Below, one piece after another: positions 7,829 through 22,387 of a stretch of 64,000 nt of DNA. Source of the stretch: Vulcanisaeta sp. AZ3 (GTDB taxonomy: Archaea; Thermoproteota; Thermoprotei; Thermoproteales; Thermocladiaceae). The stretch spans positions 1 to 64,000 of the forward strand of contig JZWU02000004.1 in NCBI GenBank assembly GCA_000960865.2. The letters are read 5' to 3'. Every line of letters begins with the position of its first letter. The stretch's first letter is position 1. Under the pieces are notes generated by a model, which did no database searches, was not told the origin of the DNA, and was given only the letters and a program-made list of their open reading frames with translations. The translations under genes and the position numbers were made by a program.

Positions 7829-7952
7829 TAAGTAACTAACATGTTTAGTACTTTTTATTACCTTCGTGAGATACGTCGCAATCTCTTGGTCCGTAAAGTT
7901 AAATCATTCTATCAGATAGGGTCCATTACTTAGATTTAATAATTTATAATAG

Positions 7953-8885
7953 TTAAAGTTCAACCCTTATCCTATACCTTGTTCTTCCCCTGACCAGTGT
8001 TAAGCTAAATACTCTGTTGCCTTCTATGAATCTCTTAGCTAGATGGACCTTCAGTTGTGCAGTGCTATTTAATTCCTCATCATCTATAGCCGTTATTACA
8101 TCGCCCTGCCTAATACCAGCATCATCTGATGGGGAACCAGGTACGACACCAGCCACCAACACTCCTTTATCCACGGACAGCCTGAAGTACTTAGCCATGG
8201 GTTTATTAACATCAACGCCGTATATGCCTAAACGGGGTCTAATGACTCTTCCAAACTTGAGTATCTCCTCAATTGATAATTTAGCTAAGTTAATTGGTAT
8301 AGCAAATCCAATGCCTTGGGCCCCAGCTATTATGGCCGTGTTTATTCCAATTACCTCACCATCTAGGTTAAGTAACGGTCCTCCTGAGTTTCCAGGATTT
8401 ATTGCGGCGTCAGTTTGTATTAAACCCTCAAGAACACCAACCGGTGTCCTAATACTCCTACTTATTGCTGAAATAACACCCAGAGTTACTGTAGGCTCAC
8501 CCAATAATCCAAGCGGGTAACCCACTGCAATTACAAGCTGCCCAACTTTAAGATTATCCGAATCACCAAGTTTAACGGGCTTTGCAGAACCAACACCGCC
8601 TCTGACCCTGACCAGGGCTGTGTCAAACTCAGGATCTGCGCCTAATAACTCACCTTCATACTCCTCTCCATCCGGGGTTACTATTATGAGCTCTGAGGCT
8701 CCTTGAACCACGTGGTTAGCAGTAACAATATGCATCTCATCGATGAAGAAGCCAGTTCCTAAACCCCTTATTGGCGTTGCATTTAACCATTCATCAACCA
8801 TTAACCTGGTCGTTATTATACTCACTACTGATGGTCTAATAGATTCAACCATGTTTACAACCTTCGACTCGATATCTCTACTCAC
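7953..8885 (-). CDS. htrA: HtrA/DegP-type serine protease with PDZ domain
   Basis: TANHVV, DTALV, QTDAAINPGNSGGPL, C-terminal PDZ; no signal peptide. Confidence 0.93.
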   Translation of the reverse strand: MSRDIESKVVNMVESIRPSVVSIITTRLMVDEWLNATPIRGLGTGFFIDEMHIVTANHVVQGASELIIVTPDGEEYEGELLGADPEFDTALVRVRGGVGSAKPVKLGDSDNLKVGQLVIAVGYPLGLLGEPTVTLGVISAISRSIRTPVGVLEGLIQTDAAINPGNSGGPLLNLDGEVIGINTAIIAGAQGIGFAIPINLAKLSIEEILKFGRVIRPRLGIYGVDVNKPMAKYFRLSVDKGVLVAGVVPGSPSDDAGIRQGDVITAIDDEELNSTAQLKVHLAKRFIEGNRVFSLTLVRGRTRYRIRVEL

Positions 8886-8934
8886 ATGAATTTAATGATG
8901 CATTAGTATATTAATATTGCGGTGATGGAGCAAT

Positions 8935-9909
8935 ATGGTTTATTTATTTAGCCGCATATTTTGTGGCAGAATGAGGAGAATTTGTGCACTATGCGGTAGG
9001 GAGACTGACATACTGATTGAGGGATTATGCCCCGATTGCTATAGGAAGACGCATCCTCTAGCTAGGGTTAAGAGAGATTATGTGGGCATTGTCAAATGCC
9101 CAAGCTGTGGGGCTATACTATACAGAGGTAGGTGGGTTAGAGATTCTAAAGCTATTGAGAAGCTAATAATTGATTCAATTGATTACTCGGGTAAAGTATC
9201 TAAGGTTTCAATTGAGAACCTTGAGTTAAGGCATGGTATGAATATCGCCACCGTTAGAATTAGAGGTACAGTCCATGAATTAATAAATGAGTATGAGGAG
9301 GAAGTACCTGTTAGGGTTAGGTATAGTGAGGAGTTCTGCCCTAGATGTAGGGATATGATTAATGAAAGGGAAAGAGCGGTCATACAGGTTAGGAGTGTTA
9401 TACTCATTGATGCCCAATTGAGGGAACTAATAATCGATATTATACGACGAGAAATTGGGAAAGATAAGGAACATAGTGGTTTTGTGAAAGTAGAGGATGC
9501 TCAGGGAGGCTTTGATGTGAAACTCTCTGACCAGGGACTTGCCAGAACTATTGCATATAAAGTGCATAAAACATTGCCTAGCAAAGTTGTTGAAAGCCAA
9601 AGTGTAGTCAGAGGTCGTGGTGATAAAGTTATCACTAAATTAAATATTAGCGTGACCATAGTTCCGATAAGTAGGGGATTTGTAATAACATATCTCAATA
9701 ATTTATATTATGTTCTTAATTACTCGCAAAGTACCGTAAAATTGTTCAATATCAGAACTAGGGAGGTTGTAAATGTAAGACTTAATGATATTATAAGGAA
9801 TGGAATTACAATACCTATGTATGAAGTAAAATGCATAGATAATAACGGAATTAGAGGGTTAGAAATCACGATAGGTAATGAGAAACACATTATAGATAAT
9901 GCCTGTTAA
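8935..9909 (+). CDS. nmd3: NMD3 family ribosome-biogenesis protein (start likely ~8971)
   Basis: Four CxxC pairs (CALC, CPDC, CPSC, CPRC), AVIQVR. Confidence 0.85.
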   Translation: MVYLFSRIFCGRMRRICALCGRETDILIEGLCPDCYRKTHPLARVKRDYVGIVKCPSCGAILYRGRWVRDSKAIEKLIIDSIDYSGKVSKVSIENLELRHGMNIATVRIRGTVHELINEYEEEVPVRVRYSEEFCPRCRDMINERERAVIQVRSVILIDAQLRELIIDIIRREIGKDKEHSGFVKVEDAQGGFDVKLSDQGLARTIAYKVHKTLPSKVVESQSVVRGRGDKVITKLNISVTIVPISRGFVITYLNNLYYVLNYSQSTVKLFNIRTREVVNVRLNDIIRNGITIPMYEVKCIDNNGIRGLEITIGNEKHIIDNAC

Positions 9910-9982
9910 TCTAATCATAGTAATAGTAATACGGATTGCAGGAAAGAACAAGTTTATAAATTCGTATTTGTCGTGATAATGA

Positions 9983-10300
9983 ATGTCTAAGGAAAATCAA
10001 CAGGGAAGTAAGGTTAGAATGCCTGGAGAAGGTGAGATGCTGGCTAAGATTGTAGAGTTAGTCGGTGATGATAGGGCCAAGGCTGTGTGCCAGGATGGTA
10101 AGGTTAGGCTTGTTAGAATACCAGGTAAGTATAGAAAGAGAATGTGGCTCAAGGTTGGTGATTATGTATTAGTTGCACCATGGGATTTTGAACCAAATAG
10201 AGCTGACTTAATCTATAAATACGAAAAAGGCGAGGTTAATGAATTGAAACAAAGCGGTTACGCTGAGGTTTTGAATCAATTAGATGAACTTGCAGGATAA
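9983..10300 (+). CDS. eif1a: Translation initiation factor aIF-1A
   Basis: RIPGKYRKRMWLKVGDYVLVAPWDF. Confidence 0.96.
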   Translation: MSKENQQGSKVRMPGEGEMLAKIVELVGDDRAKAVCQDGKVRLVRIPGKYRKRMWLKVGDYVLVAPWDFEPNRADLIYKYEKGEVNELKQSGYAEVLNQLDELAG

Positions 10301-11092
10301 TCACTTAAGCCCCAATTTCTTAATAAGCTCCCTAGCAATCTCCTCAGGATTACCTTCAATAAATTGACGTAGACGTTCACGTGTTCTCAGTTCCTTAAGC
10401 TCCGTCACAGAGGTTAATGAGCCCTTAAAGCCTACCTCATCCTCAGTTAATCCTAGATCCTTTATGCCCCATATCGTTAATTTAAGTTCGTTTTGGGCCC
10501 ATTGTAATCTCTCAAAGTCAGGGAATCTAGGTGTATTAACTCCCAACTCCACTGAAAGTACTGTGGGCATCTTAACCTTTAAAGTCTCATAACCTCCCTT
10601 AATAGTCCTTCTAACAATCACTGAATCTTCTATAATCTCCACAACTTGCGAGACGTAAGTGATCACAGGAATACCAAGCCACTCGGCAATACCCGGCGGT
10701 ACCTGTCCTGTCGAGCCGTCCTCACTCTCCTCACCAGTCACAATTAATGAGTAATCACCAATCTTCTTAATAGCAGCCGCAAGTACTTTAGAGGTTACGA
10801 ATGCGTCGGAGCCGCCTAAGGCTCTATCACTAATTAGTACTGCGTCATCAGCACCCATAGCAATACCCATCTTAATGAATTGATCCCAGAATGGTGGGCC
10901 CATGGATAGTATTATTACCTTACCACCATATCTCTCCTTTAATTGTAATGCTAGCTCGAGAGCATTCTTATCTGCTGGGTTAATCTCGTTCGTAGCCTTA
11001 GATCTATCTATTGTCTTAGTGACTGGGTCAAATCTTATCTCCTCAGGTTTTGGTGTTATCTTCATTGTGACTATTATGTTCTTGAGTGGCAT
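10301..11092 (-). CDS. etfB: Electron transfer flavoprotein beta subunit (EtfB/FixA)
   Basis: INPADKNALE, SMGPP, MGADDA, GSDAFVT, DGSTGQVP, NTPRFP. Confidence 0.93.
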   Translation of the reverse strand: MPLKNIIVTMKITPKPEEIRFDPVTKTIDRSKATNEINPADKNALELALQLKERYGGKVIILSMGPPFWDQFIKMGIAMGADDAVLISDRALGGSDAFVTSKVLAAAIKKIGDYSLIVTGEESEDGSTGQVPPGIAEWLGIPVITYVSQVVEIIEDSVIVRRTIKGGYETLKVKMPTVLSVELGVNTPRFPDFERLQWAQNELKLTIWGIKDLGLTEDEVGFKGSLTSVTELKELRTRERLRQFIEGNPEEIARELIKKLGLK

Positions 11093-11098
11093 GTTCTA

Positions 11099-12082
11099 TC
11101 ACCCCTTTAACTCTTTTATTAATGCCTTTAACACGTCAAATAGATCTGCAACAATACAATAATCACAATTCTCAAATATTGGTGCTTCCCTATCAGTATT
11201 CACAGCAACCACTGTGCCGCAGTCCCTAATGCCATAGACAAAGTGCGGGGCGCCACTAGCGCCAAAGACAAAAACAGTCTTAGCCCTAAGTGTGACACCC
11301 GTCGTACCTATCTGGTAATCCCTAGGCATTATACCCATGTCAGCCAGCGGTCTCGTGACACCAAGAGCAGCACCTATTAAATTGGCAAATTCCTTAATGA
11401 GTTCTAGGTCGCCGCCTGTACCAAGACCTGCAACCACGACCTTCTCTGCTTTAGATAAGTCAGGTATTGGTGAAACCTTCTTCTCGACGAGCTCAATTTT
11501 GCGTTTTCTTAATAAATCCTCAGGCACGGGTTCCCTAATGACCATAGCTTCCTTACTACTTGGTCTTGCTTCGTAAGTGCCTGGGCTCACGGTAGCCATC
11601 TCGGGCTTGCCGCTTATACAGGCAACTGTGGCTACAATATTGCCACCAAAGCCAGGCACTGCAGTGATTAACCTTTTATCTTTCTCATCAATATCAACCA
11701 TAATAGTATGAGCACTTAGGCAAGTCCTGAACCTAACGGCCAACCTACCAGCTAAGTCCCTGGAGTTCCTAGTGGCTGGTAAGAGTAAATACCTTGGCTT
11801 ATACTTGTTTATTACGTAAGAGAGCGTCTCAGTATAGGTGTCACTATTATAATGCCTAAGGTCTGGATGATCAAGAACTATGAGTCTATCAGCACCATAC
11901 TTAGATACCTCTTTAACTAACCCATCAGTCTCATAACCTAGTAATATTCCGAGAACCTCCTCCCCAAACTTACCACCTAGCTCACTGGCCCTAGTCAGTA
12001 TTTCTAAGGCTGTTCTCTCTAACTCGCCATCATCCTGTTCTATGAATACAGAGACACCTCTCCACTCGCTCATGCTAATCAC
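11099..12082 (-). CDS. etfA: Electron transfer flavoprotein alpha subunit (EtfA/FixB)
   Basis: RDLAGRLA, FGGNIVA, GVTRPLAD, QIGTTG, GASGAPHF, AVNTDREAPIF. Confidence 0.93.
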   Translation of the reverse strand: MISMSEWRGVSVFIEQDDGELERTALEILTRASELGGKFGEEVLGILLGYETDGLVKEVSKYGADRLIVLDHPDLRHYNSDTYTETLSYVINKYKPRYLLLPATRNSRDLAGRLAVRFRTCLSAHTIMVDIDEKDKRLITAVPGFGGNIVATVACISGKPEMATVSPGTYEARPSSKEAMVIREPVPEDLLRKRKIELVEKKVSPIPDLSKAEKVVVAGLGTGGDLELIKEFANLIGAALGVTRPLADMGIMPRDYQIGTTGVTLRAKTVFVFGASGAPHFVYGIRDCGTVVAVNTDREAPIFENCDYCIVADLFDVLKALIKELKG

Positions 12083-13199
12083 CCATCACGCTATCTAAGA
12101 ATTCTACCAAGTCCATAACCTTTAGGTTTGTCTTCATAACCTTATTGGCATCTTCAAGCATTCTAAAGCAATATGTGCATGCCGTTAATACCACCGAGGC
12201 ACCCGTATCAACAGCCTCCTTTAATCTACGCTTTGATAATTCCATGGAAACCCTTGTTTCGAGAGCAATACCGCCACCACCAGCACCACAACATAGAGAT
12301 TTCTCCTTAGAATGCTCCATTTCCACAAGCCTAACACCGGGTATTGCCATTATTACTCTCCTGGGTTCCTCAATAACTCTCTGGTGCTTAGATAGGTAGC
12401 ATGGGTCATGATAAGTCACAGTTGTATCTATCCTCTTATCAACCTTTAACTTGCCTGCTCGTATTAATTCATCTAAAAGTTCAGTGTAATGAACAACTTT
12501 AACGCCCTTAAGGTATTTCCTAAGTGAGTACTCGCAGTGCGGTGATAGAGTTACTATTATTGGAGCCTTAACATTACTCATTATTGAATCTCTAAGCTTG
12601 GTCGTATACTCGTCATAGAACGCTTTATTACCCGTATGCTGAATAATGTCGCCACAGCAGGATAGGCCCATGTACATACCGACCTTAAGTCCAGCCCTAG
12701 TTAGTACTCTAATTAGGGCCTTAATATGTTTCTGAAGCCTTGGGTCACCAATAGATAAGCAACATGGATATATTACAACGTCAGGATTCTCATTATTTAT
12801 TAAATTACTAAATTGGGTAGTAAACCTTCTCTTATCAGTTACTGTGTAGCCCCATGGATTTTGATTTTCATATATCTTCCACAGAACCTCATTTATCTTT
12901 GTTGGAAATACTTTAGATTTCATGGCCATGGTTCTAATGACCTCAACGAGATTAACAATCTCCACATTATTGGGACATAGGGCTTGGCATGTACCACAAG
13001 TTACGCAGTCCCATATAATCTTAAAGTCTCTATTTTCAATGGCGCCAAGCTGTGCCTTCTTTACGAGATACCTAATGTTATAGTTCTCATCAGTTATAGG
13101 GCAGTATGTACTGCACGTACCACATTGGTAGCATAGGCTTAAGGTTGGTACAACTTTAAGGAGTTCCTCCCTAAGGCCGAAATTAACAGCTACTGGCAT
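12075..13199 (-). CDS. HdrC/HdrD-like Fe-S oxidoreductase (2x[4Fe-4S] plus two CCG domains)
   Basis: CYQCGTCSTYCP, CVTCGTCQALCP, SCCGD, YHDPCYL, CCGAGGG, TACTYC. Confidence 0.88.
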   Translation of the reverse strand: MPVAVNFGLREELLKVVPTLSLCYQCGTCSTYCPITDENYNIRYLVKKAQLGAIENRDFKIIWDCVTCGTCQALCPNNVEIVNLVEVIRTMAMKSKVFPTKINEVLWKIYENQNPWGYTVTDKRRFTTQFSNLINNENPDVVIYPCCLSIGDPRLQKHIKALIRVLTRAGLKVGMYMGLSCCGDIIQHTGNKAFYDEYTTKLRDSIMSNVKAPIIVTLSPHCEYSLRKYLKGVKVVHYTELLDELIRAGKLKVDKRIDTTVTYHDPCYLSKHQRVIEEPRRVIMAIPGVRLVEMEHSKEKSLCCGAGGGGIALETRVSMELSKRRLKEAVDTGASVVLTACTYCFRMLEDANKVMKTNLKVMDLVEFLDSVMGD

Positions 13200-13203
13200 A
13201 CTC

Positions 13204-16200
13204 TCACCTCAATCGCTTTATTTTTTGTTTTGTTTGCTCTATTTCTTCTTTTGATATTGTTTTTACTACTCTCTCCGCCTCTCTCATAGCCTCCACTAGG
13301 TCCGTGACGTCCGGTGCTCCGAAGAGTCTTAATTGGAATCTATCTTCCCTAACACCAATATTCATTAACCTCTTCTTCCAATTCTCAAATCTCCTAACAG
13401 TATTATAATTCGCTGTTATGTAATGGCAGTCACCAAGCCTACAACCAGTTACAAAGACGCCAGCAGCACCTAATTCAAAGGCATGCTTAACATGCTTCCA
13501 ACTCAACCTGGAACTACATTGAAGCCTAATAATCCTAGCGTGCGGTGGGTATTGCAGCTTGAAGATGCCAGCATTATCAGCAGCCCAGTAAGAGCAATAA
13601 GCGCATGTAAACATGATAACCTTCTCCTCAGGTTTCTCAGCAAGTGTGGCATCAATTTGTGCCATAATAGCATCATCACTAAGGGCATCGAGAGTGATAG
13701 CATCTTGAGGGCACTCAGCAACACAAGAACCACAACCTTGACAAGCGGCTGGTACGTGCTCAATCCATTTACCGGGTACCCCTCTGATGGCACCATATGG
13801 GCATGCCTTTATACAGAGACCACATTTAGTGCACTTAGCCCAGTCGAATTTTGGTATGAATGGTTCTTTAGTGACGTATCCCTGGGCGAGCATCATGAAG
13901 GCCCTGGCCGCGGCTGCGTAGCCCTCGGCAATTGCCTCATTAACATTCTTAGGACCCCTTGCGGTTCCCGCTATGTAGATGCCAAGTGTCATTGTGTCAA
14001 CAGGCCCAAGCTTCGGATGCGCTTCCATTAGGAAGCCCTCGGGATCCTTAGATAGCCTCAGTATTTTAGAGGCTTCATCAGTGTCTTCACTAGGTGTAAG
14101 GCCTATGTTTAGTACGATATTATCAAAGGGCACCTCAACATCATCATTAAGTTCAACATCGTGAACCACCAACTTATTAGTATCCATCTTAATAGCCTCC
14201 ATTAACTCCGCCTTCCTGGGTATCCTGATAAATAACACTCCAGTATCCCTAGCCTTCTTATAAAGATCCTCAACCTCTGGAGTTACACCCATTATATCCC
14301 TATAGATAAGGACCACATTCTTACCCTGCTCCCTCAACTCTAAGGCCTTGCTAAGGCCAACTGCGCAACAGTACCTCGAACAACCCCTACCATTAGTCCT
14401 TGAACCTACACAGTTTATTATCGCTATATTCTTGCCCTCAACGGTCTTACCATTCTCTAAGTCCAGTGTCGTTAGAATTCTTGGGTCATTACCATAGTTA
14501 AACTCTGTGGGTGTGTAGGGCTTAGCACCCGTGGCCACTATTATTGCGCCAACGTCAAGTTCAGTACCGTTACTAAGCACTACGTGGAAATTACCCGTAA
14601 ACCCACTCACATCCTTAACCGTAGTACCAAACATAAACTTAACACCAACTTCCCTAGCCTCCTCAGCCATCTTATCGAGTAATTTCCTTGCCTCAATACC
14701 CTCAGGCTCAAGTTTATTCAAACGTCTGAGCATACCACCACACTCATTCGACTTCTCAACAAGTACTGTTTCAATACCAGCACTAGCAAGGCCTGTGGCC
14801 GCCGCAAGGCCTGAGGGTCCGCAACCAATTACTAACGCTTTCTTAATTACGGATAATTTTATTGTGCTTAATGGAACCATGTGATGTGTCTTAGCCACAG
14901 CCATCCTAATCATATCCTTAGCCTTCTCGGTAGCAGCCTCCCTATTTGAATGAACCCACGTGTCTAGGTTTCTAATGTTAGTCATTTCAACAAGGTATGG
15001 GTTAAGCCCAGCTCTCTTTGCAGAATCTTGGAAGAACCTTAAGTGTGTAACTGGAGAGCAGGACGCAACCACAACCCTATTTAATTTCTTCTCCTTAATA
15101 ACCTCAGTTATCCTATCGAGCGATGACTTGGCGCAGGCAAATTGTAAGTCCTCTGCATGAACAACACCCGGCATCTGCTTAGCAGCCTCAACTAAGGCAG
15201 GCACATCAGCTACACCAGCTATGTTTGTACCACAGTGACAAACAAAAACACCAACCCTTACTGGGTATGGTTCTATCGTTTCCTCATACTTCTCCTCCTC
15301 AATAACCCCGGGACTTGCATATCTAATTGCCTGTATTGCTGCTGCTAACCCTGTGACCACAGACTCAGATATATCCCTAGGGCCACTTGCAGAACCTGCA
15401 ACGAAAATACCGGACCTTGTTGTTATTGTTGGATTTTCAGGGCTTGTCCTCACAAAGCCCGCCTCATTGAGGGATATACCCAATATCTTACTGAGCTTAC
15501 CCATGTCACTTACAGGCTTTACTGATGGAGCTAACACCACCATATCATACTCATTCGTAACAATCCTCTTGTTCCTAGTATCCTCGAACCTAACGATTAT
15601 CCTACCATTTCTCTCACCAACAATCTCAGGCCTACCCCAGACGATATTTATACCCTCCTTAATGGCTCTATCATAAAAACTTTCAAAGCCCTTACCATAC
15701 GTCCTAATATCATTCATATACATTATCGTGACATTCTTAATACCATGCAAAACCTTAGCGTAAATACCTTGCTTAAGCAGGTATGTACAGCAAAAACCTG
15801 AGCAATAATCATTTTTCTTAGCATTTCTAGAACCAACACAGGATATTAATAATATATTCTCAGGTTCCTCACCAGTACTTGGTTTAACAACAATGCCACT
15901 TGAGGGCCCAGAAGCATTAACTAATCTCTCAAACTCAAGAGATGTCACGACATCCATGTACCTATCATAACCATACTCACTAAGCACATCACCTCCTTCA
16001 AGTTCAAAACCAGTTGACACTATCACTGCAGCTACATCACGCTCGATATATTTCGGCATCATTGTGTATATAATGGCATTCCTATCGCAGGCCTTAAGGC
16101 ATCTGTCGCAGGGGAAATAATTAGGTGGCTTATTTAAGCAGTGATCAATGTCGAGTATATATATACCAGGCTCGGCTTGAGGAAATGGCAAGTATATAGC

Positions 16201-16599
16201 CTTCCTAGCACCAATACCAGCCTCAAACTCGCTGGGTACCACGACAGGACACACATCCTCACATTGACCGCACTTCGTACAATCATCAGTCACGTACCTA
16301 GGCTTCACAAGTATCTTAGCTTTAAAATCACCCGGCGAACCTGTTAAATTCACAAGTTCAGCTGGTGCCAGGAGCTCGATGTTTGGATGTCTGGCAACAT
16401 CACTTATTAATGGGCCTTCAATACATATACTGCAGTCAAGGGTTGGGAACGTCTTATCTAACTGTGCCATCTTGCCACCAATGGCTGGTGACTTCTCCAC
16501 AAGCGTAACTCTATAACCCATGTTTGCTAGGGCTAATGCAGCTTCAATACCAGCAATACCACCACCAAGTATTAGGATCCTATTCGTGGGCACGACCAA
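13204..16599 (-). CDS. hdrA: HdrA-family flavoprotein, tandem HdrA-HdrA-ferredoxin-MvhD fusion
   Basis: GGGIAG, MAQLDKTFPTLDCSIC, CVGSR..CSGFCC; second module VGVFVCHCG, GCGPSG, CVGSR..CSRYCC; ferredoxin motifs; MvhD tail CAYC, QCSSR, GCRLGDCHY. Confidence 0.93.
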   Translation of the reverse strand: MVVPTNRILILGGGIAGIEAALALANMGYRVTLVEKSPAIGGKMAQLDKTFPTLDCSICIEGPLISDVARHPNIELLAPAELVNLTGSPGDFKAKILVKPRYVTDDCTKCGQCEDVCPVVVPSEFEAGIGARKAIYLPFPQAEPGIYILDIDHCLNKPPNYFPCDRCLKACDRNAIIYTMMPKYIERDVAAVIVSTGFELEGGDVLSEYGYDRYMDVVTSLEFERLVNASGPSSGIVVKPSTGEEPENILLISCVGSRNAKKNDYCSGFCCTYLLKQGIYAKVLHGIKNVTIMYMNDIRTYGKGFESFYDRAIKEGINIVWGRPEIVGERNGRIIVRFEDTRNKRIVTNEYDMVVLAPSVKPVSDMGKLSKILGISLNEAGFVRTSPENPTITTRSGIFVAGSASGPRDISESVVTGLAAAIQAIRYASPGVIEEEKYEETIEPYPVRVGVFVCHCGTNIAGVADVPALVEAAKQMPGVVHAEDLQFACAKSSLDRITEVIKEKKLNRVVVASCSPVTHLRFFQDSAKRAGLNPYLVEMTNIRNLDTWVHSNREAATEKAKDMIRMAVAKTHHMVPLSTIKLSVIKKALVIGCGPSGLAAATGLASAGIETVLVEKSNECGGMLRRLNKLEPEGIEARKLLDKMAEEAREVGVKFMFGTTVKDVSGFTGNFHVVLSNGTELDVGAIIVATGAKPYTPTEFNYGNDPRILTTLDLENGKTVEGKNIAIINCVGSRTNGRGCSRYCCAVGLSKALELREQGKNVVLIYRDIMGVTPEVEDLYKKARDTGVLFIRIPRKAELMEAIKMDTNKLVVHDVELNDDVEVPFDNIVLNIGLTPSEDTDEASKILRLSKDPEGFLMEAHPKLGPVDTMTLGIYIAGTARGPKNVNEAIAEGYAAAARAFMMLAQGYVTKEPFIPKFDWAKCTKCGLCIKACPYGAIRGVPGKWIEHVPAACQGCGSCVAECPQDAITLDALSDDAIMAQIDATLAEKPEEKVIMFTCAYCSYWAADNAGIFKLQYPPHARIIRLQCSSRLSWKHVKHAFELGAAGVFVTGCRLGDCHYITANYNTVRRFENWKKRLMNIGVREDRFQLRLFGAPDVTDLVEAMREAERVVKTISKEEIEQTKQKIKRLR

Positions 16600-17185
16600 T
16601 CACCTCCCTTAAATACTTTCTCCCGTAGTCAAGCCCTGCTTGAAATGCCTTGATGTTCATCTCTTGGACTGCTGTATCAAGTTTACCTGCTCTCCTTGTT
16701 ACATTCTTTATGGCGTTTATTACGGAATCCTCTTTCATCAATGGTTCAAGTGCTGCAGTTATGACCCCCACTAGAACAACATTCATTGTTAGTCTCCTAC
16801 CTGTAACGCTCTCAGCTATTTCCGTGGCGGGTACAGGTATTACTACATAGTCATTAGGATTTGGAATTATTGGTTTATAGATTGTGTTTTCATATATAAA
16901 TACGCCATTCTTATGAAGGCTATTAAACTCTAGATCAAAGGCTTGCTGAGTGGTGGCTACAAACACATCAGCTTCATCGATTAATGGGTAATCAACCATC
17001 TCCTTACTTATGATCACATCAGCCCTAGACCAACCACCCCTTTGTTCAGGACTATAAGTTATTGTTAATATTGAGTCAAGCCCACCCATCGCCGCGGCCA
17101 TACCCACAAGTCTACCTGCAAAGACTATACCATGACCACCGAGGCCCATGAGCCTAATGCGTACTTGATCGAGGGATCGCTGCAT
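16580..17185 (-). CDS. 2-oxoacid:ferredoxin oxidoreductase gamma subunit
   Basis: GLGGHGIVFAG, YSPEQRGGWSRADV, MNIKAFQAG. Confidence 0.92.
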   Translation of the reverse strand: MQRSLDQVRIRLMGLGGHGIVFAGRLVGMAAAMGGLDSILTITYSPEQRGGWSRADVIISKEMVDYPLIDEADVFVATTQQAFDLEFNSLHKNGVFIYENTIYKPIIPNPNDYVVIPVPATEIAESVTGRRLTMNVVLVGVITAALEPLMKEDSVINAIKNVTRRAGKLDTAVQEMNIKAFQAGLDYGRKYLREVIGRAHE

Positions 17186-17213
17186 GTTGTTCCATAAATA
17201 AATATCTAAGGGA

Positions 17214-17222
17214 TTTTATAAA
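17214..17222 (-). promoter_or_regulatory. Putative internal TATA box upstream of gamma-hdrA-hdrD-etfA-etfB
   Basis: TTTATAAAA on minus strand ~30 nt upstream of the ATG at 17185, in a 109-nt gap. Confidence 0.5.
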
Positions 17223-17294
17223 TTTTGTTCTTTTTGACATAAGTTGTTTTAATATATGCATAGATATGCGAAAAAAGTTCAGATTATATGATCA

Positions 17295-18131
17295 TTATCC
17301 ATACGATACAGGTCTCTCCCTCTTAACAAAATTTCCTAAGATTATCTTCTTCATACTAAAATCTATATCCAAATCTGAAAGGCTCGCAGTATGATCGACC
17401 ACGGATTTCTCTCTGATGATCTTCATTAAATCGACAGCATCACCCATAGCATTCCTATCAGTATATATTATACATGGAGACAAAACCTCAACTACGGCAA
17501 AGCCCTTAACCTTAAACATGTCGAGGAGTGCTTGATACAACTCATTTTGATGTAAAACGCTCCATCTAGTCACATATGATGCTCCAGCTGCATAGGCCAG
17601 GAGCGGTATGTTGAATGGATTCTCGAAGTGCCCATAGGGTGATGTTGTTGTCTTTGCACCCTTGGGTGTTGTTGGACTATACTGGCCTCCTGTCATTCCA
17701 TAGATGAAGTTGTTAACTATTATTACGTTAATATCATCATTCCTCCTGGCTGCATGTATGAAGTGATTACCGCCGATGGCCAGTATATCGCCATCACCGC
17801 CCACAACAGTAACCTCGAGCTCAGGGTTAGCCATTTTAAGGCCTACGGCAAATGGTATAGCTCTGCCGTGAGTTACGTGGTATGCATCGAGCTTTAAGTA
17901 ACCACCGAGCCTACCTGTGCATCCAATACCAGTAACTATTACGTGCTTCTCAATTGGTATCCCGGAATTTTTAATTGCCCTGGCCAATAGCTTAAGCAGT
18001 ATTCCTAAGCCGCAACCTGGGCACCAAATGTGAGGTAATCTATCGATTCTTATTAAATCCTTAATATCTTCGTATGATTTAGGGAGTTCGACTTTTATTC
18101 CTGTGGTTGTTGTCTCAGCCTCCATGCTCAT
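17295..18131 (-). CDS. korB: 2-oxoacid:ferredoxin oxidoreductase beta subunit (TPP-binding)
   Basis: WCPGCG, GIGC, HGRA, GGDGD...IGGNHFIHAARRN, YGMTGGQYSPTT. Confidence 0.93.
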   Translation of the reverse strand: MSMEAETTTTGIKVELPKSYEDIKDLIRIDRLPHIWCPGCGLGILLKLLARAIKNSGIPIEKHVIVTGIGCTGRLGGYLKLDAYHVTHGRAIPFAVGLKMANPELEVTVVGGDGDILAIGGNHFIHAARRNDDINVIIVNNFIYGMTGGQYSPTTPKGAKTTTSPYGHFENPFNIPLLAYAAGASYVTRWSVLHQNELYQALLDMFKVKGFAVVEVLSPCIIYTDRNAMGDAVDLMKIIREKSVVDHTASLSDLDIDFSMKKIILGNFVKRERPVSYG

Positions 18132-19309
18132 CTCTCGATCACCTTCCTCACATTACTTACTACATAATCTGGGTCCGGTATGTAACCTGGAGCGTATGGT
18201 ATGTGCTCCACCGGGACTCCCTTTGAGAATTCCCTAACTACATGATACATCTTACCCATGTTTACCTCCACGGTTATGAACTTCTGAATACCTCTTGAGG
18301 CAAGATTCTCAACAACCCATCCTGGAAATGGCCATGCAGTCTTCGGCCTAAGCATACCAACCCTGTAGCCCTGAGTCCTCAATATCTTTATTGCCCTTCT
18401 GGCAGAACCTGATGTTGAGCCATAGGATGTTATTACGTACTCTGCATCATCGAGCATGTACTCCTCCCACTCAGCTATCTCCTTTTCGTTTTCTCTAATT
18501 TTTCTAACAAGTCTCGTGACAAGTTTGAATGAGGCGTCTCTATCGGTTGTTGGGTATCCCTTATCTGTATGTGTTAATGATTCGTTGTTAGCCCTATAAC
18601 CAGTACCTGCTATGGCCATTGGTGGAACTAGGTATCTACTATCATAGGGTAAGTATTGATCTGGCGGTACTGTTGGTTTTGGCCTCTCAAATATTTCAAT
18701 TTCATCGAACTCAGGCACCCTAACTTTACCGTACATATGTCCAACTAATTGATCAGACAGAACTATAGCAATGACCCTATATTTCTCAGCCATATTAAAC
18801 GCCTTTATAGTGAAGTCAAAGGCTTCCTGGGGGTTAGCAGGTAAGTAAGCAATTATTTCATAATCTCCATGCGAACCGTACTTAGCTTGTAGTATATCGC
18901 CTTGTCCAAGGAGTGTTGGTATTCCTGTTGATGGACCTGCTCTCATTACATCAACTATCACGGCGGGTATTTCCAACATAGAACCTAGCCCAATCTCTTC
19001 CTGCATTAGGGAGAAACCTGGACCGCTTGTTGCGCTCATGGACTTAACACCGGCTGCTGATGCGCCGAGTAATGCCATTATACTTCCTATCTCATCCTCC
19101 ATCTGTATGAACTTACCACCAACCTGGGGCAGCCTATATGACATGTATTCAGCAATCTCGTTAGAAGGAGTGATTGGATAACCAGCATAGAACCTACAAC
19201 CAGCCGTTACCGCACCCTCAGCAATTGCGGTATTACCATCCAGGAAGTGAATGCCAGGCTTCAACAGCTTATCTAGGTCCTTCTTATATAATTCAGCTAC
19301 TGTGAGCAT
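18128..19309 (-). CDS. korA: 2-oxoacid:ferredoxin oxidoreductase alpha subunit
   Basis: YAGYPITPS, QMEDEI, ATSGPGFSLMQE, RAGPSTG. Confidence 0.93.
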   Translation of the reverse strand: MLTVAELYKKDLDKLLKPGIHFLDGNTAIAEGAVTAGCRFYAGYPITPSNEIAEYMSYRLPQVGGKFIQMEDEIGSIMALLGASAAGVKSMSATSGPGFSLMQEEIGLGSMLEIPAVIVDVMRAGPSTGIPTLLGQGDILQAKYGSHGDYEIIAYLPANPQEAFDFTIKAFNMAEKYRVIAIVLSDQLVGHMYGKVRVPEFDEIEIFERPKPTVPPDQYLPYDSRYLVPPMAIAGTGYRANNESLTHTDKGYPTTDRDASFKLVTRLVRKIRENEKEIAEWEEYMLDDAEYVITSYGSTSGSARRAIKILRTQGYRVGMLRPKTAWPFPGWVVENLASRGIQKFITVEVNMGKMYHVVREFSKGVPVEHIPYAPGYIPDPDYVVSNVRKVIER

Positions 19310-19631
19310 GCTTGTTCACCCCATAATACTTATCATACGTTATATACTCCTCTGAAATCACGGTTATTGCAAAATCTGGACACACCTTCTCACACATCTT
19401 ACAGGCCACGCACTCAAGTTCCTTACCAGGTTTAACCACAGGATAATGGTAACCCTTGAAATTCACGTCCTTAGATTCCTCGAGGACATCGTTTGGGCAG
19501 AATTCGATGCAGAATTTACAATCCTTACAAAGATCTATGTTGACTTGAATCTTACCAATGGGTCGTTTCATCTTATGAAGGTTAACGAGTCTACGCATGA
19601 ACCAAGACCCGTCCTGCTGAGCCAGAACCAT
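19293..19631 (-). CDS. 2-oxoacid oxidoreductase delta subunit (2x[4Fe-4S] ferredoxin)
   Basis: CKDCKFCIEFCP, CVACKMCEKVCPDFAI; overlaps alpha start. Confidence 0.9.
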   Translation of the reverse strand: MVLAQQDGSWFMRRLVNLHKMKRPIGKIQVNIDLCKDCKFCIEFCPNDVLEESKDVNFKGYHYPVVKPGKELECVACKMCEKVCPDFAITVISEEYITYDKYYGVNKHAHSS

Positions 19632-19835
19632 ACCTGATTACTATTGTTTTCAGTAAAAATATTTTTAAATCTTCTTCTTCAACAGTATAATTCTTATTGG
19701 TCTTACCATATACTTAAATAATTTAATATTAATGCATTTAAAAATATTCATTGAAATATTTATCATAAGCATTAGTATAACGATATGACAAGAAACCCTA
19801 GGATTTAAAATGTCTCAATTCATAGAGAATACTCA

Positions 19836-20717
19836 GTGAGCCTTCCTGAGGATGAGGATAGAGCAATTAGAAAGAGGATTGAAAGTAGAAGGTTTAGGAT
19901 TAAGGATATCGATCAACTAAAGACTGTTGATGACGTATTCAATCAATACACAATAAATGCATTGAGAGAGCTCATGAACAGAGGCATTGTTGATGAAGTT
20001 TATGGCCCTGTTGCTCAGGGTAAAGAGGCGAAGGTTGTATGGGCAAAATCACATGACAATAAGGATATTGCCCTAAAGATATTCTACACAACCACAGCCC
20101 AATTCATTAGGGGTAGATATAGGTATCTCCTTGGCGATCCTAGGTTCACCAGTGTAAATATATCGAATACGAGGAAGTTAATTGAGTATTGGTGTAAGAA
20201 GGAGTATGGTAATTTAAGCAGTGCTTACAATGCAGGCGTTAGGGTACCAAGGCCGATAGCCTTTAATAAAAATATATTGGTTATGGAATTCATAAACTAC
20301 GAGGGATATAACGGCGTACCTGCACCATTAATTAAGGATTTACCACCAAGTAATCCCAATGAGGCATACTTAGTAATTATCAAGTTCATCGAAAGAGCAT
20401 TATTACTTGGTGATATAATCCATGCAGACCTCAGTGAATTCAATATATTAAACACTGGAAGAGAATTGGTTATTATAGATTGGGGTAGTGCCGTGAGGGT
20501 AAGCCATCCCAATGCGTTTGAATTTCTACTTAGGGATCTAGAAAACGTGAATAGATACTTTGGTAGAGAGCTTGGTGTTGATGTGTTCAACAGTGGGACG
20601 TTATTGAAGGTATTATTACGTAGATATGAGTACAAGAGTGAGGCTAATGAGGATAAGGATGGCTGGTTATTAATAGAGGGGAATAGCATAATTGAGGAGA
20701 TTAATAATGGGCCTTAA
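19836..20717 (+). CDS. rio1: RIO1 family atypical Ser/Thr kinase
   Basis: GKEAKV, ALKIF, KEYGNL, IHADLSEFNIL, IIDWG. Confidence 0.95.
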   Translation: MSLPEDEDRAIRKRIESRRFRIKDIDQLKTVDDVFNQYTINALRELMNRGIVDEVYGPVAQGKEAKVVWAKSHDNKDIALKIFYTTTAQFIRGRYRYLLGDPRFTSVNISNTRKLIEYWCKKEYGNLSSAYNAGVRVPRPIAFNKNILVMEFINYEGYNGVPAPLIKDLPPSNPNEAYLVIIKFIERALLLGDIIHADLSEFNILNTGRELVIIDWGSAVRVSHPNAFEFLLRDLENVNRYFGRELGVDVFNSGTLLKVLLRRYEYKSEANEDKDGWLLIEGNSIIEEINNGP

Positions 20718-21002: not shown

Positions 21003-21341
21003 ATGTCATTACCTATACCGCCAGAGCCTGGGGATATTAAGGATAGGATCATGAAGCGAAGAAGTGCATGCACAGGTACTGGTTGTGACTCCTTTGCTGT
21101 TTGGTTTGGTAACGAGTTAGCTAAGTATCTATGGGCTCATTGGAGTAAAGAATTAAGTAGGGTTCACATTAATTGGCAGAGATTTCTGGTGATACTTGGT
21201 AATCATACTCAAGATATTATTAATTGGGCCATTAAAGGTACCCTTAATTGGGAGGATTTAGTTAAGATAATTGCAGGTGAGGCATTAACGGGCGTGAGAA
21301 TACAGGAGGAGAAGGGCGGTATACTAGATTACATTAGGTGA
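21003..21341 (+). CDS. Hypothetical protein, Trp-rich, 112 aa
   Basis: Clean ORF, host-like codon use, AT-rich promoter region upstream; family not recognised. Confidence 0.7.
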   Translation: MSLPIPPEPGDIKDRIMKRRSACTGTGCDSFAVWFGNELAKYLWAHWSKELSRVHINWQRFLVILGNHTQDIINWAIKGTLNWEDLVKIIAGEALTGVRIQEEKGGILDYIR

Positions 21342-21396: not shown

Positions 21397-21756
21397 TTAT
21401 GATGAAGGAATAAGACTATTTACTTGATTTGCTTTAATATTGGCTTGTTTCTTTCGCCCTAGTATTGATTCATTCATTATCCTTATCAATATACAAATCT
21501 CTCTACAAATGTTATATGGTTCTGTGTTTGAGCGCATGTATTCGATGATCATTATTGGTGTTGCATAAGTATTAATCCAGAACTCTGCGAATAATTTCTC
21601 ATCCTTGTCAACAAGGTGTACCTCCACATTACTGTCACCACTAAATCTCACCATGTACCTTGACCCACTCATGAATTGCTGTCTCTCAACCGATATAGCA
21701 TTGCAAGTCCTCATTAGTAAATCAGCCACTAAGCCGGCTATTCGCGTGCTCATCAC
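21397..21756 (-). CDS. Hypothetical protein
   Basis: 119-aa ORF filling a gap, TTTAAA box upstream. Confidence 0.55.
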   Translation of the reverse strand: MMSTRIAGLVADLLMRTCNAISVERQQFMSGSRYMVRFSGDSNVEVHLVDKDEKLFAEFWINTYATPIMIIEYMRSNTEPYNICREICILIRIMNESILGRKKQANIKANQVNSLIPSS

Positions 21757-21835: not shown

Positions 21836-22387
21836 TTATTTAACCACTATGGTACTATCATCATCTTCATCATCATGAGGTTTAAATGTCATGATAATGA
21901 ATCTATATAATGTCGATAGTTTATTATTCATCAAATCCTCAATTAGCTGCCAAGACATCACCAATAAGCCTGCATTGTAAAGAGCAAGCCCAAATCCTAG
22001 ATAATGATCACCGGTCAATTGGTAATCAGTAATAACAAGCCCAAGGTCTGCATAATGCATTATTGATATGTATGTAAAGTACATAAGAGCTATCATGAAG
22101 AAAGTTATGTATGTAATTATAAGCGCTCTGGCCCTGAATGACATATCCCCAAAGCCGTTCCTTAATTGTTTAATCATTGTTAGTGAGGATATCACAAGCA
22201 TGGACAGCATGAACATAAACACTGGAGTAACTATCAGCACCGTTAGGTTCGCAATGCCATAAAGCCACAGCTCTATTAATACATAGTCGAGAGCCATTGC
22301 CATAGATAGGGCTGAGATTAGGGACATTATGTATATATACCTTACATAATCCTGAATACCTCCCGTATTAACCGACATACTATTCAA
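21836..22387 (-). CDS. Hypothetical membrane protein (~4 TM), acidic C-tail
   Basis: Four hydrophobic segments; HDDEDDD tail. Confidence 0.65.
   Translation of the reverse strand: MNSMSVNTGGIQDYVRYIYIMSLISALSMAMALDYVLIELWLYGIANLTVLIVTPVFMFMLSMLVISSLTMIKQLRNGFGDMSFRARALIITYITFFMIALMYFTYISIMHYADLGLVITDYQLTGDHYLGFGLALYNAGLLVMSWQLIEDLMNNKLSTLYRFIIMTFKPHDDEDDDSTIVVK

Follow-up and report, generated by a model that had tools for sequence, protein, structure and literature searches.

A conserved gene cluster joining a 2-oxoacid:ferredoxin oxidoreductase to tandem HdrA, a BamD/EtfD-like protein and a two-FAD-type Etf may encode a soluble electron-bifurcating complex

What kind of enzyme is encoded where the genes of a 2-oxoacid:ferredoxin oxidoreductase (OFOR), a heterodisulfide reductase-like flavoprotein and an electron-transferring flavoprotein (Etf) lie end to end, and where would its electrons go? 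Such a cluster, made up of eight minus-strand open reading frames (ORFs) in one orientation, fills positions 10301–19631 of a 64,000-nucleotide stretch of DNA from Vulcanisaeta sp. AZ3 (assembly GCA_000960865.2, contig JZWU02000004.1, positions 1 to 64,000; hereafter the window). An initial annotation, made from the sequence letters, had read it as a soluble system without hydrogenase that couples 2-oxoacid oxidation and NAD(H) to the reduction of a disulfide or sulfur carrier. We arrive at a different end point: the eight genes may encode one soluble Fe–S/flavin complex built on the plan of BamDEF, the electron-bifurcating part of class II benzoyl-CoA reductase (BCRII), in which an OFOR, NAD(H) and free ferredoxin exchange electrons. 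We give this explanation as a whole a little less than an even chance; its architecture stands somewhat better than even, and its specific net reaction is doubtful. Gene content, conservation, sequence signatures and a predicted interface between EtfB and the HdrD-like protein are what was observed; the joint complex, with its cofactors, substrates and direction, is proposed.

In transcriptional order (5′ to 3′), the genes are korD, korA, korB, korG, hdrAA-mvhD (a tandem HdrA fused to MvhD, hereafter HdrAA), an HdrD-like gene, etfA and etfB. All eight are placed in the ORF listing as the initial annotation had them, and Pfam and NCBIfam models assign domains to each that agree with its identifications by eye. 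Within the cluster, the same models found no hydrogenase, acyl-CoA dehydrogenase, FixCX, AprAB or membrane subunit, as had also been noted, so that gene content bears out the idea of a soluble, hydrogenase-free system. The genes mostly overlap or abut: korD and korA share 17 nucleotides (nt), korA and korB 4 nt, korG and hdrAA 20 nt, and hdrD and etfA 8 nt, and the remaining junctions are gaps of 4 and 6 nt, with the exception of korB–korG (109 nt).

Across Archaea and Bacteria, the eight genes behave as one conserved unit. All four congeners examined (G004, G008, G011 and G012) have them in identical order at 78–95% identity; the flanks are conserved there too, and congener synteny alone therefore says little. 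A wider scan, in which contigs from one genome per species were searched with an alignment of 12 tandem HdrA proteins, returned 78 loci, 20 of which hold a near-full-length HdrAA at at least 43% identity. Ten of these 20 are complete and in the same order (L023, L025, L030, L032, L034, L037, L038, L041, L052 and L063; from Chloroflexota, Elusimicrobiota, Ca. Sysuimicrobium and Ca. Geocrenenecus), the other ten end at a contig edge and carry every gene that the remaining DNA can hold, and no locus among the 20 lacks a cluster gene where DNA is present. Hosts of the wide-scan loci comprise Anaerolineae and Dehalococcoidia (Chloroflexota), Elusimicrobiota, Ca. Sysuimicrobium, Ca. Geocrenenecus (Nitrososphaerota), a metagenome-assembled genome of the Natrialbaceae and an unclassified archaeon, and the source names of close protein relatives also indicate Thermoplasmatota, Armatimonadota and Methylomirabilia. 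Among Thermoproteota, 16 of 201 sampled genomes gave a strong HdrAA match, and the cluster occurs in 4 of about 40 sampled families; the four loci examined from three families other than the window's own all have the eight genes in order (HdrAA at 47–53% identity), and kor and etf were found at none of three Thermoproteota loci whose HdrAA is only 40–42% identical.

Junctions are mostly tight wherever they could be estimated. Of 17 loci with an estimable korG-to-hdrAA distance, 13 have values from −17 to −2 nt (extrapolated to the first residue of the window protein), and the korB-to-korG distance is, by the same kind of estimate, mostly small or negative elsewhere and larger at only a few loci. 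Clustering of all ORFs from 17 loci revealed no conserved ninth gene: outside the eight, no family occurs in more than 3 of the 17, and neither a thiol carrier nor a lipoyl protein, acyl-CoA dehydrogenase or quinone reductase is conserved among the neighbours. The synteny search that the initial annotation had called for, with loss of co-conservation as grounds for giving up its idea, thus finds the genes kept together in both domains. Its remark that the combination had not been characterised holds in part. A full-text search of open-access papers found no description of a kor–hdrAA–hdrD–etfAB cluster, and Hdr, Etf and Kor are treated separately in the accessible parts of PMC9723716, PMC5736913, PMC11237513, PMC6085437, PMC7382037, 10.1101/2025.02.26.640444 and PMC5861303, the third of which describes HdrA–HdrA–MvhD fusions as common in TACK archaea. 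The HdrAA/HdrD/Etf part, on the other hand, has a precedent in BamE, BamD and ETF.

Three loci carry insertions. A saccharopine-dehydrogenase-like gene lies between hdrD and etfA at L038 (11967–13202), and two ORFs of 295 and 313 amino acids (aa) without a Pfam family lie between korG and hdrAA at L052 (8108–9944), each in an otherwise intact cluster. At L104 (6399–8000; G095:C25), HdrAA itself is interrupted in frame by about 520 aa near its DCSIC motif, at about residue 60 of the window protein; the insertion is an intein with a homing endonuclease (Intein_splicing and LAGLIDADG_3), and the other cluster genes there are intact.

The centre of the proposed complex would be HdrAA (13204–16599, minus strand; 1131 aa from a TTG start). 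Its best solved match is methanogenic HdrA (5odc_A, E 5e-178), and Pfam and NCBIfam place the starts of flavin adenine dinucleotide (FAD)-binding Rossmann folds at residues 7 and 587, together with Fer4 domains and an FlpD/MvhD domain at 994–1114. Residues 5–357, a thioredoxin reductase (TrxR)-like FAD domain with an inserted 2×[4Fe-4S] ferredoxin domain, align with residues 143–492 of 5odc_A; residues 448–592 match its N-terminal domain (5–150); a second, more divergent TrxR-like FAD domain spans 587–893; residues 824–984, comprising the end of that TrxR domain and a C-terminal ferredoxin domain (915–984), align with 485–648; and residues 991–1114, with the [2Fe-2S] site, match MvhD chains. 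Counted on the 5odc_A alignment, K276 corresponds to HdrA Lys409, which we take to be the key residue next to flavin N5, and it is invariant in all 48 tandem HdrAs compared; C56 and C59, within the DCSIC motif, are invariant in all 21 cluster-type sequences. In the second domain, the position matching K276 is variable in the cluster clade, with no conserved lysine.

HdrAA therefore has what marks the bifurcating HdrA subunit (an FAD domain with the lysine, an inserted ferredoxin domain, and N- and C-terminal cluster domains) and also what marks BamE (tandem TrxR domains, bifurcating-FAD hallmarks in the first only, and a cysteine pair near the flavin). HdrA2 is its best NCBIfam model at 1063 bits, under the equivalog cut-off of 1100, and the HdrA (685 against 1400 bits) and hdrA_Methbact (683 against 1300 bits) cut-offs are missed as well. 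According to the available text of the cryo-EM study of BCRII, BamE is a fused HdrA dimer with a bifurcating FAD, Lys280 at its N5 and a cysteine pair nearby in TrxR1, and a structural FAD in TrxR2; its inserted ferredoxin domain feeds the low-potential catalytic module and its flavin-adjacent cluster feeds BamD (bioRxiv 10.64898/2026.04.10.717634). Judged by the motif, C56 and C59 would be the equivalents of BamE Cys59 and Cys62.

Where does this protein stand among tandem HdrAs? From 64 tandem HdrA ORFs found, leaving out 17 longer than 1330 aa, a FastTree phylogeny of 48 sequences (SH-like support, midpoint root) places 26 in one clade with support of 100: all 21 cluster-type proteins, 3 from Calditrichota and 2 paralogues from congeners (G008 and G011). 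BamE-like HdrAAs linked to genes of the aldehyde:ferredoxin oxidoreductase (AOR) family sit in the other half of the tree. All 26 clade members adjoin OFOR genes where the contig allows. In the two congener paralogues, moreover, a korD-like 2×[4Fe-4S] domain is fused to the N-terminus of HdrAA–MvhD, at the HdrAA end that has the inserted ferredoxin domain, a Rosetta-stone hint at wiring of the OFOR to the low-potential branch of HdrAA. The OFOR–HdrAA link thus appears to be the core and the oldest part of the system.

The relatives differ in their surroundings. In the Calditrichota variant (L059, 3072–10867; L090, 6962–15471; L081), korDABG is accompanied by a shorter tandem HdrA (about 955 aa), an mvhD gene of its own and an HdrD-like gene whose product has a C-P-E-C motif, and etfAB is absent; downstream lie 3-hydroxyacyl-CoA dehydrogenase, thiolase-like and HMG-CoA-synthase-like genes at L059 and another HdrA-like/MvhD gene at L090. 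The HdrAA paralogue (63% identical; 1226 aa at L018, 7550–11535, G008, and 1255 aa at L017, about 7860–11913 on the minus strand, G011) is followed by a 102-aa HdrC-like protein without CCG domains and by no etf; it adjoins acetolactate synthase and ketol-acid reductoisomerase genes, with a por-type OFOR operon about 1.7 kb downstream. No such paralogue turned up in the window's own genome, at 89.85% completeness. Also at L018 (12029–12753), whose congener genome is complete, two neighbouring ORFs of 114 and 121 aa match citrate synthase, at positions 140–246 and 260–356 of the profile; the gene may be broken or split. A third kind of HdrA-like locus (L019, G011:C1:1695000-1714000, and L020, G023:C25) has an HdrA-like gene product of about 460 aa, 42–44% identical to the first half of HdrAA, a gene product of about 660 aa and a small MvhD-like one, without kor or etf; presumably it resembles QmoAB of sulfate reducers.

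The HdrD-like protein (12075–13199, minus strand; 374 aa, with Fer4_8 and two CCG domains) decides whether a disulfide could be the end point. EtfD is its best solved relative by sequence (9ojn_A, E 1.8e-42), far ahead of HdrB and HdrC (about 1e-15), and with its predicted structure (mean pLDDT 88.7) Foldseek ranks first the same Mycobacterium smegmatis EtfD (9ojn, E 4.4e-20, TM 0.82 over the whole query), followed by LutA and HdrB; the best NCBIfam match is TfrB, a thiol:fumarate reductase subunit, at 173 bits against a cut-off of 385. Two cubane [4Fe-4S] motifs (C23/26/29/33 and C65/68/71/75) precede a proximal non-cubane site made up of C267, C303, C304, C341 and C344 with H221, and the distal site is modified (C147, C181, C182 and C222, with S219 replacing a cysteine). 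The eight cubane cysteines and the five of the proximal site are invariant in all 18 aligned HdrD-like sequences. The first CCG motif ends in S219-P-H221-C222 rather than CxxC, where HdrB chains have C-N-G-C; H221 is invariant in all 16 cluster orthologues, and C147, C181 and C182 are missing in 2 of the 16 (L052 and L082). The same S-P-H-C occurs in the BamD-like proteins of L044 and L047; at these two loci, the HdrD-like gene has an AOR-family gene on one side and a BamE-like tandem HdrA on the other, a bamBCDEF-like arrangement.

Two complete CCG motifs with ten cysteines, the catalytic site of HdrB and HdrD, are therefore absent from the HdrD-like protein, which has instead the features of BamD, EtfD and EMO: an HdrC-like domain with two cubanes, a proximal site of five cysteines and a histidine, and a degenerate distal site. 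In EtfD, EMO and BamD, as the available parts of the three reports describe them, a histidine completes the coordination of the proximal cluster or fills the coenzyme M (CoM) site, and these proteins transfer electrons, with ETF as the partner, rather than reduce disulfides (PMC13083937; bioRxiv 10.64898/2026.08.18.745454; bioRxiv 10.64898/2026.04.10.717634). By homology, the HdrD-like protein would be a BamD/EtfD-type electron wire and not a disulfide reductase. A DsrC-family gene was found in three of the five cluster-bearing genomes searched, the window's own among them; with genomes this incomplete the count is weak, and no general link to DsrC is supported. The disulfide, DsrC or persulfide end reaction that the initial annotation had favoured is thus not supported: against it stand the type of the HdrD-like protein, H221, the lost distal cysteines and, weakly, this count.

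On the other side of the wire lie etfA (11099–12082, minus strand; 327 aa, ETF and ETF_alpha, without an N-terminal ferredoxin domain) and etfB (10301–11092, minus strand; 263 aa, ETF). Among solved structures, the five best relatives of EtfA and of EtfB alike come from 6fah, 7qh2, 5ol2, 7koe and 4kpu, which we take to be bifurcating-type Etf complexes; these score from 4e-59 to 3e-38 for EtfA and from 3e-46 to 1e-39 for EtfB, against 2e-26 and 1e-22 or weaker for canonical Etfs. The accessible part of PMC12630350 gives Gly123 of Acidaminococcus fermentans EtfB as invariant in two-FAD Etfs and replaced by a bulkier residue in canonical ones. Two positions of the window's EtfB could answer to Gly123, the exact numbering being inferred, and glycine stands at each: G120 is invariant, and G126 is conserved in at least 90%. 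Being nearer to bifurcating than to canonical Etfs, and with a glycine that would leave room for a β-FAD, the window Etf looks like the two-FAD type and can be expected to bind NADH at that flavin. HdrA-type and Etf-type flavin modules are accordingly both present with the hallmarks of bifurcating enzymes in their sequences, as had been proposed. Two further Etf pairs and four acyl-CoA dehydrogenases are encoded elsewhere in the genome, and for this reason the window pair is not taken for the cell's general Etf.

Complex prediction, which the initial annotation had suggested as a check, was applied to EtfA, EtfB and the HdrD-like protein, each supplied as an alignment of 13–14 orthologues, with three controls. 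It gave a score of 0.80 (runs of 0.79, 0.81 and 0.80). In the calibration, which holds only roughly with alignments of one's own, 58 of the 80 solved complexes attained this mark, as did 2 of the 110 mismatched pairs; the best control reached 0.54, and in it EtfA had been replaced and EtfB kept, making it no true negative. The runs share at least 90% of their contacts, with a partner pLDDT of at least 88. All confident contacts are predicted between EtfB (15, 17–18, 34, 36, 42, 187–190, 192–194 and 196–197) and residues 100–121 and 191–197 of the HdrD-like protein, with F190 central; loop 186–197 of EtfB, in which N186, P188, R189, F190 and D192 are invariant, would thus dock on the HdrD-like protein. 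In EMO, EtfAB likewise binds solely through EtfB, as reported from cryo-EM in the available portion of that preprint (bioRxiv 10.64898/2026.08.18.745454).

The remaining four genes encode the OFOR, with alpha, beta, gamma and delta subunits together as in Kor-type enzymes: korD (delta; 19293–19631, minus strand; 112 aa, a 2×[4Fe-4S] ferredoxin by Pfam Fer4 and NCBIfam), korA (alpha; 18128–19309, minus strand; 393 aa, POR_N and PFOR_II), korB (the thiamine pyrophosphate (TPP)-binding beta subunit; 17295–18131, minus strand; 278 aa, TPP_enzyme_C) and korG (gamma; 16580–17185, minus strand; 201 aa, POR domain). KorA passes the NCBIfam equivalog PRK08659 with 487 bits against a cut-off of 411, and its best solved relatives are 1yd7 (2-keto acid:ferredoxin oxidoreductase alpha, 1.3e-107), 8ys5 (2-oxoglutarate synthase alpha, 2.7e-82) and 6n2n; that of KorB is 8ys5_C, a 2-oxoglutarate:ferredoxin oxidoreductase (OGOR) beta subunit (9.3e-64). 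The best named relatives are thus of OGOR type (8ys5, and the NCBIfam models PRK09627, PRK09628 and OGOR_delta), with all three models below their cut-offs (alpha, 374 against 579; beta, 248 against 364; delta, OGOR_delta, 71.7 against 125 bits). NCBIfam also records weak similarity of KorA, KorB and KorG to PadG, PadI and PadE. The genome has four further OFOR alpha homologues, that of the cluster being the fifth, and since it also has the two further Etf pairs, the OFOR and Etf of the cluster are dedicated copies.

How might these parts work together? By analogy with BamE, the FAD of the first HdrA half would be the bifurcating flavin (K276, C56/C59 and the inserted ferredoxin domain), serving three ports. 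At the low-potential port (about −500 mV), electrons would pass from the inserted ferredoxin domain through KorD, probably the electrical link between OFOR and HdrAA, to the TPP/[4Fe-4S] site of the OFOR, which would occupy the place of Bam(BC)2 in BCRII, as homology to BCRII and the korD-like fusion suggest. The high-potential port would lead through the HdrD-like wire to the α-FAD and then the β-FAD of the Etf, which as a two-FAD type could exchange electrons with NAD(H) (−320 mV); homology and the complex prediction, with EtfAB predicted to dock through the recognition loop of EtfB, both point this way. The third port, the fused MvhD and C-terminal ferredoxin domain, would exchange electrons with free ferredoxin (about −410 mV), a proposal drawn from thermodynamics only: potentials of about −500 and −320 mV average about −410 mV, all redox values being textbook figures.

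Free ferredoxin is the simplest partner for this third port because the cluster holds no gene for another, the window's own genome (89.85% complete) gave no NiFeSe_Hases match, and its only NuoF-like gene is paired with a molybdopterin formate-dehydrogenase-like gene, on another contig and near a cytochrome bd oxidase gene. That locus (L109, 381–7445; G000:C22:12380-19445) encodes, on one strand, the NuoF-like protein (489 aa), a molybdopterin oxidoreductase with NuoG-like N-terminal Fe–S domains (890 aa, resembling NAD-dependent formate dehydrogenase), a pyridine nucleotide-disulfide oxidoreductase and cytochrome bd oxidase subunit I. The net reaction would be reversible: 2-oxoacid (most likely 2-oxoglutarate) + CoA + NADH + oxidised ferredoxin ↔ acyl-CoA + CO2 + NAD+ + reduced ferredoxin. 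In a peptide-fermenting, peptide-degrading or sulfur-respiring anaerobe, the complex would run as a confurcating enzyme, with surplus driving force from the oxidation of the 2-oxoacid lifting NADH electrons to ferredoxin; in the opposite direction, it would boost reductive carboxylation.

Several points weigh against this mechanism. 2-oxoglutarate is no more than the probable substrate of the OFOR, the OGOR-specific models being below their cut-offs. With no counterpart of BamGHI, the cluster is without an input module, and redox arithmetic is all that suggests a partner for the MvhD port. A two-FAD Etf normally needs a low-potential acceptor of its own, which makes the net stoichiometry uncertain, and the α-FAD of Etfs is usually far more positive than NAD+, so that Etf electrons may go to quinone or acyl-CoA enzymes, as in BCRII. 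The docking score may partly reflect memory of ETF–partner structures in the PDB that use the same loop, and in the Calditrichota relatives, which lack etf, the HdrD-like protein has C-P-E-C and could itself be where catalysis ends the chain. The korB–korG gap may divide transcription of the window cluster into two units, although such a split would fall within the OFOR (korDAB and korG-hdrAA onwards) and not between the OFOR and Hdr genes. Finally, two key sources are preprints.

The strongest alternative makes Etf a diffusible high-potential acceptor. The MvhD port would be the entry, fed by reduced ferredoxin or by an NADH-linked module whose genes lie elsewhere, and the HdrA flavin would send one electron to the OFOR, for 2-oxoacid synthesis by reductive carboxylation of acyl-CoA, and the other through the HdrD-like protein to Etf, which would leave and be reoxidised by a FixCX/EMO quinone reductase or by enoyl-CoA reductases, the complex itself not using NAD(H). 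This is exactly the wiring reported for BCRII in the available text of its preprint, including transient binding of ETF to BamD (bioRxiv 10.64898/2026.04.10.717634). It would use the same HdrAA and HdrD-like signatures as the mechanism preferred here, its energetics fit (input at about −320 to −410 mV, outputs at about −500 and about 0 mV), and the window's genome has acyl-CoA dehydrogenases and further Etf pairs. Yet etfAB lies inside the operon and is kept in every complete locus, whereas the Geobacter ETF is a separate, shared carrier, and a mere carrier would not need to be of the NADH-binding two-FAD type. Most named hosts, moreover, live heterotrophically, and why they should need to boost a 2-oxoacid synthase is not evident. 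We therefore consider this alternative unlikely.

A bolder arrangement of the same parts, which seems to us rather improbable, is a ferredoxin-independent, CO2-fixing supercomplex, in which an NADH-fed Etf module and the HdrA module would act in series to drive the bound 2-oxoacid synthase, using NADH alone, with Etf/quinone as the high-potential sink, for the reductive carboxylation of succinyl-CoA or acetyl-CoA. If true, it would be the third case, after Hdr–Fmd and BCRII, of hierarchical bifurcation tied directly to a difficult reduction, and one found in both Archaea and Bacteria.

Could electrons simply run down one wire, from OFOR through HdrAA and the HdrD-like protein to Etf and NAD+, with neither a third partner nor energy coupling? 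All the parts for such an NAD+-dependent 2-oxoacid oxidoreductase, an analogue of phenylglyoxylate dehydrogenase (PadEFGHI) or of the 2-oxoacid dehydrogenase complexes, are present; no gene for a third substrate is conserved; the weak Pad similarities of KorA, KorB and KorG fit; and some two-FAD Etfs operate without bifurcation, as in acryloyl-CoA reductase. K276, C56/C59, the inserted ferredoxin domain and the MvhD port would, however, all be superfluous, four flavin sites and about ten Fe–S clusters would be a costly way to build a wire, and some 180 mV would be wasted, all of which makes a linear enzyme improbable.

The end point first proposed for the cluster fares worse. As a heterodisulfide-type reductase, linked to NADH or the OFOR, it would take electrons from NADH through Etf, and HdrA would bifurcate them: one branch would lead to ferredoxin or the OFOR, the other to the CCG domains of the HdrD-like protein, where a disulfide, DsrC trisulfide or persulfide would be reduced, in the manner of FlxABCD–HdrABC or Mvh–Hdr. 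The domain content of HdrA, MvhD and HdrC/B is that of such enzymes, TfrB is the best (if below cut-off) NCBIfam match, the distal site keeps a CC pair that EtfD lacks, the window's genome has a DsrC-family gene, and the Calditrichota relatives have the full C-P-E-C and no Etf. Against this, the first cysteine of CxxC is a serine and H221 never varies, the distal cysteines are gone from two of the 16 orthologues, and the protein is far closer to EtfD than to HdrB; S-P-H-C is shared with BamD-like proteins, and heterodisulfide binding by BamD is argued against in the available part of the BCRII preprint (bioRxiv 10.64898/2026.04.10.717634). Two of the five cluster genomes, which are incomplete, yielded no member of the DsrC family, and no thiol-carrier gene is conserved nearby. 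For the cluster clade, these features (S-P-H-C, the invariant H221, the lost distal cysteines and the closeness to EtfD) lead us to reject the HdrD-like protein as a disulfide or sulfur-carrier reductase, and we hold the reductase as a whole to be very unlikely.

Least probable of all is that no joint complex forms and an ordinary ferredoxin-reducing OFOR merely shares an operon with a separate Hdr/Etf enzyme, ferredoxin being the diffusible link: a possible internal promoter and T-run in the korB–korG gap and the insertions tolerated at korG/hdrAA (L052) and hdrD/etfA (L038) would allow it, but the possible split would cut the OFOR itself and not part it from the Hdr/Etf genes, korG and hdrAA overlap or adjoin at most loci, gene order is kept across domains of life, a korD-like domain is fused to the HdrAA paralogue, and every member of the HdrAA clade stands beside OFOR genes where the contig allows.

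Intergenic regions of the cluster hold candidate transcription signals. Upstream of korD, an AT-rich intergenic region (19632–19835), common to korD and the divergent RIO kinase gene, holds TTTAAAAATATTTTT about 30 nt ahead of the korD ATG, a candidate archaeal TATA box and B recognition element for korD. In the korB–korG gap (17186–17294, 109 nt; the only sizeable gap of the cluster), the T-run CTTTTTTC lies right behind korB and the TATA-like TTTATAAAA about 30 nt ahead of the korG ATG; the gap may hold a weak terminator and an internal promoter, and transcription may restart there. A scan for sigma-70 promoters and intrinsic terminators gave no excess over shuffled sequences, the models being bacterial ones that are not meaningful for an archaeon.

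The cluster is cleanly bordered, on the opposite strand, by the genes for eIF-1A (9983–10300, plus strand) and RIO kinase (19836–20717, plus strand), and further flanking genes encode NMD3, an HtrA-like protease, a thiolase and reverse gyrase. The thiolase gene (6253–7452, plus strand) lies about 3 kb off the cluster, past housekeeping genes. Reverse gyrase (22500–26300, plus strand; 1266 aa) identifies the host as a hyperthermophilic archaeon. Between the RIO kinase and reverse gyrase genes are three ORFs without a Pfam family at E ≤ 0.001 (21003–21341, plus strand, 112 aa; 21397–21756, minus strand, 119 aa; and 21836–22387, minus strand, 183 aa).

If one BamDEF-like complex does couple the OFOR, NAD(H) and ferredoxin, several consequences would follow. 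About a dozen types of enzyme are known to bifurcate electrons at a flavin. BCRII has only recently been shown to chain two bifurcation modules, and the cluster would be a second and much more widespread case, on an OFOR of central metabolism. The proposed reaction would explain electron exchange between NADH and ferredoxin in anaerobes without an NADH-binding complex I module, Rnf or confurcating hydrogenases and, read in reverse, would allow reductive carboxylation to be driven without a ferredoxin of very low potential. HdrD-like and HdrA genes of this kind are routinely annotated as heterodisulfide reductase and taken for signs of thiol/disulfide or methane-related metabolism, against which the signatures described here argue. 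Cultured Vulcanisaeta strains exist, in which the hypothesis would be directly testable.

Set beside characterised enzymes, the cluster proteins appear to belong to the OFOR, HdrA-fold, BamD/EtfD-type and two-FAD-Etf families, and to be neither a CoB–CoM heterodisulfide reductase nor BCRII. The OFOR resembles KorDABG/KGOR enzymes (8ys5, 1yd7 and 6n2n) in subunit set and domains, with OGOR-type proteins as the best solved and NCBIfam relatives; unlike them, it misses the OGOR equivalog cut-offs, and its korG is translationally coupled to hdrAA. The Etf subunits are most similar to those of Bcd–EtfAB, CarCDE, LctBCD and EtfABCX/FixABCX, and have the glycine diagnostic of a β-FAD, but the partner here is an HdrD-like Fe–S protein rather than an acyl-CoA, lactate or quinone flavoprotein, EtfA has no ferredoxin domain, and the gene order is etfA, etfB. 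With HdrABC–MvhAGD, Fdh–Hdr–Fmd and HdrA2B2C2 of Methanosarcina acetivorans, the cluster shares the HdrA fold with its clusters and the MvhD adaptor, HdrA2 being an HdrA–MvhD fusion as well, and Fdh–Hdr–Fmd, in which low-potential electrons are channelled directly to a CO2-fixing enzyme, offers a conceptual parallel. It differs from these methanogenic systems in its tandem HdrA, which scores below the HdrA2 cut-off, in having no HdrB-type catalytic site, hydrogenase, formate dehydrogenase or F420 module, and in its hosts, which are not methanogens; nor does the cluster contain the Flx or [NiFe] hydrogenase module of FlxABCD–HdrABC or Mvh–Hdr.

The ETF:menaquinone oxidoreductases, EtfD of M. 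smegmatis and EMO of S. aciditrophicus, come closer on the Etf side. As far as the accessible parts of the two reports describe them (PMC13083937, 9ojn; bioRxiv 10.64898/2026.08.18.745454), they combine HdrC-like and non-cubane domains, have a histidine in the substrate site and take part in electron transfer with Etf, and in EMO contact with EtfAB is made only through EtfB, as in the interface predicted here. The window protein lacks their haem b membrane domain and quinone site, and its partner on the other side would be HdrAA and not the membrane; its distal site keeps the CC pair (C-T in EtfD) and has a serine in place of Cys581 of EtfD.

By analogy, the closest known system is BCRII, that is, its BamDEF module with ETF. 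The Geobacter metallireducens enzyme, as given in the available text of the preprint, is Bam[(BC)2DEFGHI]2 with ETF (bioRxiv 10.64898/2026.04.10.717634), and in that description it shares with the window a fused HdrA dimer, a bifurcating FAD with its lysine in the first TrxR domain, an inserted ferredoxin domain that leads to the low-potential module, an HdrD-like subunit whose proximal non-cubane cluster is capped by a histidine and whose distal site has serine for cysteine, an ETF partner and an MvhD-type adaptor. The AOR-linked loci L044 and L047 tell the same story from sequence: window HdrAA is 37–39% identical to their BamE-like proteins, the HdrD-like protein 32% to their BamD-like ones, and S-P-H-C is common to both. 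The differences lie in the modules attached. In the window, a TPP-dependent Kor-type OFOR stands as the low-potential module where BCRII has the tungsten-containing BamBC; BamGHI, the NuoEFG/HydABC-like input module, is missing, and no AFOR or Complex1_51K domain was found in the cluster; etfAB, of the two-FAD type, is part of the operon; MvhD is fused to HdrAA, with no TGA codon within the MvhD part of the frame, whereas BamF is described, in the same part of the preprint, with selenocysteine; and the window HdrAAs form a separate clade (support 100). On this comparison, the cluster would work like BamDEF and ETF, except that an OFOR replaces the tungsten enzyme and BamGHI is missing; it also resembles an Etf/EMO pair stripped of its membrane part.

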